Shown one piece after another: positions 34,341 through 37,220 of a stretch of 37,220 nt of DNA (its first letter is position 1; each line of letters starts with the position of its first letter). This DNA comes from a virus (Duplodnaviria > Heunggongvirae > Uroviricota > Caudoviricetes). A model generated the notes under the pieces. That model saw only the letters and a list, made by a program, of their open reading frames with translations, made no database searches and was not told where the DNA came from. The translations under genes and the position numbers were made by a program. Location: positions 1-37,220 of the IMG/VR virus record IMGVR_UViG_2718218102_000005, one strand, 5' to 3'.

Positions 34341-35081
34341 ATGACTACTTTTACCGACAAAGAACTGATTAAAGAAATCAGAGAGCGAATCGGCAGCCTG
34401 GACGTGCGAGACAATATTGAGCGCCTGGCTTATGAAATCGCACTGGCATCGCTGGCAGCAGTATCGGATGAACGAGCAGCCTATGAATTATTTATGGAGA
34501 AGCGTTTCGGGGAATCTGTAGATCGCCGTAGGGCAAAAAATGGCGATAGAGAATACATGGCATGGGATATGGCGCTTGGCTGGATTATCTGGTGTCACCG
34601 CGCCGCCATGCTTCAGGGTAGCCAACCTGTAAGCCAAACTTACAACTTGCCAGAATTAATCGAAGGCATGGAAGTTTCCATTGATGTAAGCACTTGTGAT
34701 GCTGATTTAGGTAATCGCTATTTCGGCACCGTCACCGAGGCGTTAGAACTTGATACAGCCAAGAATGGTTACATCCTCCTGGTTCAGGACGCAGAGCCAA
34801 ACTTCGATGTAAATGGCAACTCTCCGGGAACTCCGGATAGTTGGGTTATGGTGCCGAAGAGACTAACAGCAGAGAACGGCGCTAAGGGGGTGCTATCCGG
34901 TGAATTTTCAGAAACTACGTTTATAAGCTGCCTGGAATGCTTTGGCGATGATGATTGCGATACCTGTGACGGGAGCGGACGTATTGAAATTAAAGTGCCA
35001 GTCACGTGGTCGACCATAAAATCTATCTGGGATAAAGGTATCGAGTATTTTGCAGCAAAACCATCACAAGAGGTGAAGTGA
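34341..35081 (+). CDS. Hypothetical protein with C-terminal DnaJ-type CxxCxGxG zinc-finger motif
   Basis: 246-aa ORF; C-terminal CLECFGDDDCDTCDGSGRIE fits CxxCxG...CxxCxGxG. Confidence 0.5.
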   Translation: MTTFTDKELIKEIRERIGSLDVRDNIERLAYEIALASLAAVSDERAAYELFMEKRFGESVDRRRAKNGDREYMAWDMALGWIIWCHRAAMLQGSQPVSQTYNLPELIEGMEVSIDVSTCDADLGNRYFGTVTEALELDTAKNGYILLVQDAEPNFDVNGNSPGTPDSWVMVPKRLTAENGAKGVLSGEFSETTFISCLECFGDDDCDTCDGSGRIEIKVPVTWSTIKSIWDKGIEYFAAKPSQEVK

Positions 35082-35653: not shown

Positions 35654-35689
35654 TTTTCCCGGGTGCAGCCGGTTTTGATGGAGAAAATT

Positions 35690-35971
35690 ATGAACACCTT
35701 GTTTTTACTGATGGCTGAATTCAATACCCCTAACATTGAACTCTCAGCAGTTAGCCAAAAGTACTTTGGCATGAGTCCAGCCACGGCAGAAGCAAAAGCA
35801 AACGCTTGTAAGTTGCCCGTTCCAACATATCGCATCGGCACATCACAAAAAGCAAAACGTTGCATCAATATTCAGGATCTTGCGGAATACATAGACAAAA
35901 GACGAGAAGAAGGACGTATCGAGTGGGAACAGGTCAGAACAGGCAAACAGAAGGGCAAAGAACATCACTAA
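35690..35971 (+). CDS. PrtN-like / AlpA-type small DNA-binding protein (putative excisionase)
   Basis: ORF track 35663-35971; ATG at 35690 with SD ggaga 5 nt upstream (MNTLFLLMAEFNTPNIELSAVSQKYFGMS..., 93 aa); last gene of the early-left operon, where xis-type genes usually sit. Confidence 0.5.
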   Translation: MNTLFLLMAEFNTPNIELSAVSQKYFGMSPATAEAKANACKLPVPTYRIGTSQKAKRCINIQDLAEYIDKRREEGRIEWEQVRTGKQKGKEHH

Positions 35972-35973
35972 AG

Positions 35974-36000
35974 AAAAAACCCGCCTAAAGGCGGGTTTTC
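35974..36000. terminator. Bidirectional Rho-independent terminator
   Basis: aaaaaacccgcc-taaa-ggcgggtttt: 6-bp GC stem (35980-35985 / 35990-35995) flanked by an A-run 5' and a T-run 3'; terminates the plus-strand operon and the minus-strand three-gene unit. Confidence 0.6.
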
Positions 36001-36018: not shown

Positions 36019-36192
36019 TCATGCTACTTTGCGACGACGAAGCTTACCCTGCTGCTCTTTACCAGAGACAGTAGCGTGAGTGAACGCATTAGGAGCAGCC
36101 TTCATCAGAACTTCAACAGCAGCCCCCATACCTGCGAATGCTTTCATTGTGTCGAACTTAACCTGTGGCTTGGTTGCTTTTTGATCTTCCAT
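36019..36192 (-). CDS. Small hypothetical protein (57 aa), third gene of the minus-strand unit
   Basis: Own translation MEDQKATKPQVKFDTMKAFAGMGAAVEVLMKAAPNAFTHATVSGKEQQGKLRRRKVA; ATG at 36192 with GGAG SD 8 nt upstream; the overlapping 75-aa track ORF is low-complexity. Confidence 0.4.
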   Translation of the reverse strand: MEDQKATKPQVKFDTMKAFAGMGAAVEVLMKAAPNAFTHATVSGKEQQGKLRRRKVA

Positions 36193-36231
36193 AGAAAACT
36201 CCAGAAGCTATACCGAAAAAATTCCTGTTGT

Positions 36232-36651
36232 TTACTCATCATCAATAGATGATACGCAATATTTATTTTTAAATTTAAGGTTCTTTGGCGTAACTTCATC
36301 AGATATATCAAAACCGTCCAGAATTCTATTGAATGTAGCTTCTGGCATATCATCATGAACAGAAATCTCACCCGATCGCTGCTTTCTAACCATGTTATCC
36401 ACTCGCCAAATTATAGCTTCAGCGTAAACAACATAACTTGGATGCTTGATAAAGCGATGATCACCAGAATTCAAGACGCAAGACGGATCGTGGGGGACAC
36501 CATCCTTGATACTAGAAATATTAACAACTAAAACACAATAACAATCGTTAACGGGGTAATAAACAGGATCATTACAAATCACATGAAGATGATTGCATGG
36601 CCCTGTTGGGGCAAGCACAGTTCCTTTCCTGTATGGCTGATAATCCGTCAT
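36232..36651 (-). CDS. Unrecognised 139-aa protein, ATGA-coupled to the Panacea-domain gene (candidate toxin/effector)
   Basis: ATG at 36651 overlaps the upstream stop as ATGA; His/Cys/Asp-rich (CNHLH, DCYC, HDPSC, GDH); visibly AT-rich; no family recognised. Confidence 0.5.
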   Translation of the reverse strand: MTDYQPYRKGTVLAPTGPCNHLHVICNDPVYYPVNDCYCVLVVNISSIKDGVPHDPSCVLNSGDHRFIKHPSYVVYAEAIIWRVDNMVRKQRSGEISVHDDMPEATFNRILDGFDISDEVTPKNLKFKNKYCVSSIDDE

Positions 36652-37220
36652 GATAATTGCAAAGAAAATTCCTTAAGTTTCTGAGATTCTTCCATTTTGC
36701 CAATTATATGATTAGCCTCATCCTCGCTTTTACCCTCACTGATCAGCATTTCTTTCAGATCTATAGGCTTACGGGAATAGCCGGGATCGTGCCACTCTGG
36801 ACAAACGCTTTCTAAATGCGTCATGTTTGCGAGATCAAATCGGTTCATATGCCCATACAGAGAATAGATTTCATCTAAAATCCGGATATCTGCACGGCTC
36901 AACTCATCAAAGACCTCGTCTGCATCCATTTCCCTCGGATCTGAACGCAACAACACATCATGCCCGTTCGTCTCTATCAAGTTGTACCAGTAGTCACCAA
37001 TGCCTTCAGCCTTACCACGAATCAAGTTCAGCGTATTCGACATGACTGGTCCAAATTTCATAGAGTAAAGGCTATCTTCGCCGATCATCCTGCCATGCTT
37101 CAAAATCGACTTGCGGTTAGACAGATAGAGCAGCTTCATCAGTTTCAGATATGCCATGCGCCCACCTCGCTTAAGAAGTAGGTATGCAGCCATTTGAGCT
37201 ACTTTTTCTTCGCAAAACAT
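36648..37220 (-). CDS. Panacea-domain (DUF4065) antitoxin-like protein, possibly 5'-truncated by window edge
   Basis: 190 aa within the window; LKLMKLLYLSNRKSILKHGRMIGEDSLYSMKFGPVMSNT matches the DUF4065/Panacea signature as I recall it (SocA/PanA-like KLQKLLYY...GPV); the ATG at 37220 may or may not be the true start. Confidence 0.55.
   Translation of the reverse strand: MFCEEKVAQMAAYLLLKRGGRMAYLKLMKLLYLSNRKSILKHGRMIGEDSLYSMKFGPVMSNTLNLIRGKAEGIGDYWYNLIETNGHDVLLRSDPREMDADEVFDELSRADIRILDEIYSLYGHMNRFDLANMTHLESVCPEWHDPGYSRKPIDLKEMLISEGKSEDEANHIIGKMEESQKLKEFSLQLS

Follow-up and report, generated by a model that had tools for sequence, protein, structure and literature searches.

A probable type II PanAT toxin-antitoxin cassette among the accessory cargo of a dusA-integrating temperate phage of Escherichia coli

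PanAT toxin-antitoxin (TA) systems, in which a Panacea-domain antitoxin is encoded beside a toxin, were defined by Kurata et al. (2022, PNAS; PMC8832971), who sorted them into 88 toxin clusters. In cluster T6, as represented in the portion of their Dataset S1 covered here, the antitoxin gene comes first, the overlaps between the two genes are mostly −1 or −4, and the toxins are mostly named "hypothetical protein"; by HHpred, the same authors found the T6 toxins to be MazF-like. The validated representative of the cluster is the Pseudomonas moraviensis pair PanA WP_083354365.1/PanT WP_083201923.1 (PMC8832971): its PanT is toxic and specifically inhibits the incorporation of 35S-Met, i.e., protein synthesis, and its PanA rescues from this toxicity and forms a stable complex with PanT in pull-down experiments. 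Standalone Panacea domains were reported to neutralize toxins directly (Ernits et al. 2023; PMC10440598). Here, we describe two genes, panA and panT, at the end of a viral DNA stretch of 37,220 nucleotides (nt) (IMG/VR record IMGVR_UViG_2718218102_000005, Caudoviricetes), which is referred to in its entirety as the window. The pair probably constitutes a type II PanAT cassette that is carried as accessory cargo by a temperate phage integrating in dusA; the cassette is intact and belongs to an already published family rather than to a new type of system. The features that define the pair are the following.

36648-37220, minus strand: panA, complete gene of a 190-amino-acid (aa) antitoxin whose Panacea/DUF4065 domain spans residues 27-137; no additional N-terminal domain; acidic C-terminal tail of ~45 aa
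36648-36651, minus strand: ATGA start/stop overlap (−4) of panA and panT, read from the sequence
36232-36651, minus strand: panT, gene of a 139-aa putative toxin with a predicted MazF/Kid-like fold, assigned to PanT cluster T6; core residues H21, D55, C58, G63, H65, F67, S72, and Y76

An initial annotation, made from the letters of the window only, had read a DUF4065/Panacea signature in the first gene. In a formal hidden Markov model (HMM) search, PanA matched the Pfam family PF13274 (SocA_Panacea) over residues 27 to 137 with 67.9 bits (gathering cutoff, 25.7) and E = 1.8e-18, and PGAP calls the same 190 residues a "Panacea domain-containing protein." The concern that the gene might be cut by the window edge proved unfounded: its ATG forms the last three bases of the window, both its length and its N-terminus (MF[CS]E.K.AQMAAYLL) are kept in 23 PanA homologues, which begin at the same Met, and PGAP agrees on 190 aa, so that panA is complete. 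The suspicion that a promoter had been cut off was correct, the promoter region lying outside the window. The C-terminal tail has an isoelectric point (pI) of 5.2. A single-sequence AlphaFold2 model of PanA had a predicted local distance difference test (pLDDT) value of 41.8, too low for use.

The three minus-strand open reading frames (ORFs) of 190, 139, and 57 aa that had been listed initially were recovered, as were their ATGA overlap and the AT-richness of the genes, with G+C contents of 0.435 for panA and 0.383 for panT versus 0.506 for the window. The proposal that a Panacea antitoxin is coupled here to a toxin in a TA module is supported by the domain match, by the strict conservation of the pair, and by the published cluster with its validated representative. 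The overlap is consistent with translational coupling of panA and panT; an overlap of 4 nt also occurs in 7 scanned loci (e.g., L005, L006, L008, and L010) and in many T6 rows in the covered portion of Dataset S1 (PMC8832971). The scan of species-representative genomes with the toxin alignment yielded 26 loci, 25 of which were analyzed for neighbors, from Enterobacterales, Methylococcales, Sutterella, Sphingomonadales, Rhodobacterales, and others; the loci span Gamma-, Alpha-, and Betaproteobacteria. In 24 of the 25, the toxin gene is directly preceded by a PanA homologue on its own strand; the exception is cut by a contig end. These upstream homologues comprise ~170 to 227 aa (mostly 184 to 195; one ORF of 117 aa) and end within a few bases of the toxin start. 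When the phage and E. coli loci were added, PanA stood beside the toxin in all 29 loci having room upstream, and the third, 57-aa gene was not conserved. The similarity of PanA and that of the toxin drop in parallel across loci, which fits a co-evolving pair.

The link to cluster T6 was made through two genomes listed in Dataset S1 (PMC8832971), Pantoea septica LMG 5345 (antitoxin first, −4) and Yersiniaceae bacterium 2016Iso4 (antitoxin first, −1), each of which is listed once in the covered portion of that dataset, under T6. The scan found homologues of the 139-aa protein with 55 to 56% identity in both (L010, P. septica LMG 5345; L009, 2016-Iso4), in each case downstream of PanA and with a gene order and overlap matching the dataset. 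Furthermore, PanA of the Pseudomonas phage Sirocco starts with MIFSEQKVAQ, the ten residues that Kurata et al. restored to the P. moraviensis PanA. These matches strongly, if indirectly, indicate that panT belongs to cluster T6. The likeness to the P. moraviensis pair extends to a standalone-Panacea antitoxin of ~190 aa with an MF/IFSE.KVAQ N-terminus, the antitoxin-first order with a −1/−4 overlap, and a toxin of ~135 aa that has no CDD or Pfam match and is MazF-like by structure; the E. coli prophage copy differs in being only ~48% identical to the nearest Pseudomonas phage homologue and in forming a discrete cassette beside the attP site of a dusA-integrating phage. Several Pasteurellaceae T6 toxins are named "terminase" in RefSeq, according to the covered portion of Dataset S1; this label is probably a propagated misannotation of a MazF-fold family.

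The initial description of the 139-aa partner as rich in His, Cys, and Asp was accurate (6, 6, and 14 residues, respectively). It had also been said to match no known toxin family, which was upheld by the profile searches and not by structure or cluster assignment. The HMM search suggested at the time returned no match in Pfam or NCBIfam, nor was there one in PADLOC; PHROGs gave an unnamed family only, ten distant members of the family had no Pfam match either, and a PDB sequence search gave nothing below E = 0.3. The AlphaFold model, computed on 37 homologues with a pLDDT of 93.6 and a predicted template modeling score (pTM) of 0.87, features a five-stranded barrel followed by helices. With this model as the Foldseek query, the top 50 PDB matches were all MazF or Kid, and the top viral matches were annotated as PemK-like or endoribonuclease. 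The protein is thus predicted to adopt the SH3-like barrel fold of the MazF/CcdB type and, by this model, is a strongly diverged MazF-fold toxin. Its family is very large: an exhaustive profile search yielded at least 2,682 representative clusters (916 at E ≤ 1e-10), nearly all of ~130 aa. Among 106 diverse members, all have H21, and at least 93% retain each of D55, C58, G63, H65, F67, S72, Y76, G113, and S117. The exact 139-aa sequence was found on at least 1,000 contigs.

RefSeq/PGAP starts the toxin at a GTG codon, Val12, giving a 128-aa product (WP_014640052.1) that is 11 residues too short (window 36618-36651; L001 6719-6752). The residues MTxYxPYRKGT preceding Val12 recur in homologues of as little as 47% identity, G10 being invariant, and the predicted strand β1 spans residues 11 to 16, its first two residues being supplied by the upstream segment. 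Because of this conserved N-terminus and the predicted strand, the ATG start with 139 aa is the better call.

Compared with the MazEF, Kis-Kid, and PemIK systems, the pair differs in both partners. The toxin shows no sequence-level similarity to theirs, has additional helices at the C-terminus (104-116 and 122-131), and conserves H21, D55, C58, and H65 instead of the Arg/Thr pair of MazF (Arg29 and Thr52), and the antitoxin is a Panacea protein and not one of the AbrB/SpoVT-fold MazE/Kis type. With SocAB, the type VI TA system of Caulobacter, it shares the antitoxin domain family PF13274, SocA being the founding Panacea protein, whereas the partner is not SocB-like. SocA is an adaptor of ClpXP that promotes degradation of the toxin; the PanA of T6, by contrast, binds its toxin stably. 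A SocAB-type mechanism was considered and rejected, PanA scoring 13.4 bits against the NCBIfam SocA equivalog NF047745, which has a cutoff of 190. Two E. coli PanATs of Kurata et al. (PMC8832971) likewise have a Panacea antitoxin: that of STEC O31, of cluster T3, with a validated membrane toxin, and that of a MOD1-EC5558 prophage, of cluster T1, which was not toxic. Both represent other toxin clusters, and the toxin described here is predicted to be a soluble MazF-fold protein rather than a small membrane peptide.

The surroundings of the pair were analyzed by comparison with E. coli chromosomes and with related phages. Three further features are needed for this purpose.

36206-37220, minus strand: part of the AT-rich cassette within the window, comprising the pair and its upstream region; the cassette measures ~1.2 kb in all, with ~196 bp more past 37220
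36019-36192, minus strand: gene of a 57-aa basic protein (phrog_2741), belonging to the phage backbone; it lies downstream of the cassette, with which it is probably co-transcribed, and outside the TA module
35975-36000, no strand assigned: GC-rich hairpin lying between the xis operon and the minus-strand genes, which converge; 11-bp stem including 6 GC pairs and, on the minus strand, a T-run

The region has 100% identity to the chromosome of E. coli K-15KW01 (NZ_CP016358.1) and, among the matches listed, to 5 other complete E. coli chromosomes, and the whole window is an E. coli prophage with a contractile tail, inserted in dusA. Extension of the sequence beyond 37220, as had been recommended, revealed 264 bp of phage DNA, then a displaced 5′ fragment of dusA (coding for ...RFSIAPMLD), which represents attR, and then zur (L001 7322-7794). 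A tyrosine integrase gene lies just outside window position 1, adjoining dusA. The excised or circular relatives Lys8385Vzw and mEp460 have the gene order exonuclease, xis (PrtN family), 57-aa gene, variable slot, attP, int, and dinI; recombination at attP upon insertion in dusA has moved the integrase to the opposite prophage end. The initial placement of the minus-strand genes between the excisionase and the expected integrase therefore holds for the phage map and fails for the prophage, where attR and zur follow instead.

Phage mEp460 shares xis, the terminator, and the 57-aa gene, at 96% identity, and lacks panAT. Homology to this phage breaks off at 36205 of the window, in the interval from panT to the Shine-Dalgarno (SD) sequence of the 57-aa gene, and resumes ~70 bp before attP; since it is interrupted on both sides, a variable slot is filled here by a discrete 1.2-kb cassette, made up of the pair and ~196 bp of upstream DNA. 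The G+C content of the cassette is 0.412, compared with 0.506 for the window. The pair taken together with the 264 bp of phage DNA upstream corresponds to K-15KW01 positions 2989729-2991007 (NZ_CP016358.1). In mEp460 the slot between the 57-aa gene and attP is occupied by an unrelated 177-aa protein, gp23 (L003 3487-4020), for which no Pfam match was found. This occupant suggests, from the sequence comparison, that the slot beside attP is a cargo hotspot in dusA-integrating phages, and the pair, as an AT-rich cassette exchanged for another gene in mEp460, appears to behave as mobile cargo. Approximately 360 further E. coli genomes have the xis/57-aa flank without panAT.

Of 5,426 complete E. 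coli genomes, 208 (~4%) carried the pair, always on the chromosome, and in 206 it was intact. Matches to the 139-aa toxin gene were obtained in nine phage records: two E. coli phages, three of Yersinia (YeP1-3), and one each of Klebsiella, Vibrio, and Pseudomonas (P2-like), the ninth being a bacteriophage record with Helicobacter as the host. In all phage records inspected, the toxin gene is immediately preceded by a PanA-type gene. The pair occupies accessory positions in the Yersinia, Klebsiella, Vibrio, and Pseudomonas phages; specifically, the toxin gene of YeP1 is located beside int and dinI, and in the P2-like Pseudomonas phage Sirocco, whose toxin is 48% identical to that of the window, the pair is located beside the portal gene. 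The Sirocco record (OR683410.1) leaves the toxin homologue (L032 1501-1863) unannotated and gives an opposite-strand ORF of 135 nt instead; the PanA-like gene lies directly upstream at 929-1486.

From these data the following mode of action is proposed. PanA and PanT would be translated from one transcript that starts in the ~260 bp of phage DNA past 37220 and runs inward; opposing the early-left/xis operon, this transcript would probably be made in the lysogen, independently of the lytic operons. PanA, a standalone Panacea domain with an acidic C-terminal tail, would bind PanT directly and hold it inactive, as seen for the T6 homologue, with either the Panacea core or the tail mediating neutralization. 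Freed PanT would block protein synthesis, again as seen for the T6 homologue, and its predicted fold points to RNA cleavage as the most likely means. Judged by its position and mobility, the likely role of the cassette would be to stabilize the prophage, to defend against other phages by abortive infection, or both.

Several observations weigh against this proposal. Promoter-like −35/−10 matches upstream of panA were no better than expected by chance. The 139-aa protein has no sequence match to the Pfam family of PemK/MazF toxins (PF02452, PemK_toxin), and an hhalign comparison of the family profile with single sequences of E. coli MazF and Kid was nonsignificant (probability <1%), so that its kinship to MazF and Kid is structural only. 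The protein is acidic (pI 5.6), and its conserved His/Asp/Cys/His set appears unlike the catalytic residues of MazF; an RNase activity of PanT is predicted from the fold. Membership in T6 was established indirectly, via the two T6-listed genomes rather than via WP_083201923.1 itself, and no named P. moraviensis member was among the best 120 matches listed in the profile search. Toxicity and rescue of the E. coli copy are presumed by analogy with the P. moraviensis pair, and Kurata et al. (PMC8832971) saw no toxicity in E. coli for 8 of 25 candidate PanTs, among them that of the E. coli prophage T1 pair. Finally, PADLOC-DB 2.0 contained no family matching any of the three proteins at E ≤ 1.

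As to the main role, it is quite possible, if short of probable, that the cassette serves abortive-infection defense, with Panacea sensing a component of the invading phage and freeing the MazF-fold toxin, a role compatible with the TA mechanism outlined above. It would suit the location of the cassette beside attP in an accessory slot of variable content, its direction of transcription, opposite to that of the lytic operons, the presence of homologous pairs in accessory positions of unrelated temperate phages, including that beside the Sirocco portal gene, and the sensor function hypothesized for Panacea by Ernits et al. 2023 (PMC10440598). However, no PADLOC model matches, a literature search found no phage-challenge data for T6, and no trigger is known. 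A main role in addiction, in which loss of the prophage is penalized by postsegregational killing and other phages play no part, is conceivable though doubtful: classic type II TA systems behave in this way, and the cassette lies at the extreme prophage end beside attR, always chromosomal and intact in the 206 genomes, yet lability of PanA is an assumption, and in other genomes the same cassette also lies away from prophage ends. A reading that joins toxin chemistry and defense is rather unlikely as a whole; it holds that T6 toxins use the MazF scaffold with a different chemistry, namely, a His-based or metal-dependent site or a Cys-His-Asp triad formed from H21, D55, C58, and H65, and act on a translation target other than bulk mRNA, the cassette providing abortive infection with Panacea sensing a phage trigger.

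There is a small chance that the pair is a nontoxic or decayed relative whose 139-aa protein does something else for the phage and simply accompanies PanA. The nontoxic candidate PanTs mentioned above and the "terminase" label carried by some T6 proteins in the covered portion of the dataset would agree with this; the near-invariance of the core residues across the 106 diverse members, the strict linkage to PanA, and the recurrence of the exact 139-aa sequence on at least 1,000 contigs argue against it. It is very unlikely that the protein poisons gyrase in the manner of CcdB or acts as some other non-nuclease binder based on the MazF/CcdB scaffold.

As a PanAT cassette, the locus provides, from an E. 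coli prophage, a native member of a widespread toxin family for which Pfam, NCBIfam, and PADLOC hold no model, and which has thousands of distant relatives, with the pair itself present in ~4% of complete E. coli genomes. The E. coli copy is experimentally convenient for studying the neutralization of a MazF-fold toxin by a standalone Panacea domain, the part played by the conserved His/Asp/Cys/His residues, and the possible protection that PanAT cassettes in accessory slots of prophages give lysogens against other phages. The remaining interest thus lies in the chemistry of the toxin, in a very large family lacking a curated model, and in the possible defense role. Two annotation errors were exposed as well, i.e., the short RefSeq toxin start and the toxin gene missing from the Sirocco record.

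The initial annotation had treated the 57-aa gene, with its good SD sequence, as the third gene of the unit. The ORF and its SD (GGAG, 7 nt before the ATG) were confirmed, and the protein matches phrog_2741 with E = 2e-35 and is conserved on at least 1,000 contigs. The grouping was not sustained: the gene is present in mEp460 without the pair and absent from all 28 other fetched loci with a toxin gene, and consequently it is not part of the module. That the 57-aa protein is nonetheless a functional third component is scarcely credible, because its position on the same strand, 39 nt downstream of panT with no terminator between and with a good SD, is set against its occurrence behind a different upstream gene in mEp460, its absence from the 28 loci, and the cassette boundary separating it from panT. 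The three-gene operon was rejected as a functional unit on these comparative data. The 57-aa protein is very basic, with a pI of 10.2 and a C-terminal KLRRRK motif.

The minus-strand genes had been said to end at a bidirectional terminator. The hairpin at 35975-36000 exists, whereas a terminator scan called it on the minus strand only, the plus-strand side offering just TTTT; judged by its sequence, it is convincing as the terminator of the minus-strand transcript. An Rfam scan of the region gave only subthreshold chance matches to hairpin-containing families, located on this hairpin.

Both window ends coincide exactly with gene boundaries. The genes yjbL and yjbM, which lie between zur and dusA in K-12, have no annotation in K-15KW01. 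The putative excisionase gene (window 35663-35971) encodes a member of the PrtN (pyocin activator) family (PF11112, E = 4e-23; PHROG excisionase phrog_1300, E = 8e-40), and its PGAP start is later than that of the window ORF (93 aa). Among the neighbors of homologous pairs elsewhere were genes for a DNA methylase and a Uma2 nuclease. Finally, window 34341-35081 is a single ORF of 246 aa with a zinc-finger-like CxxC...CxxCxGxG motif, which PGAP splits in K-15KW01 into a "partial" pseudogene (L001 4442-4711) and a coding sequence named "molecular chaperone DnaJ" (L001 4685-5182).
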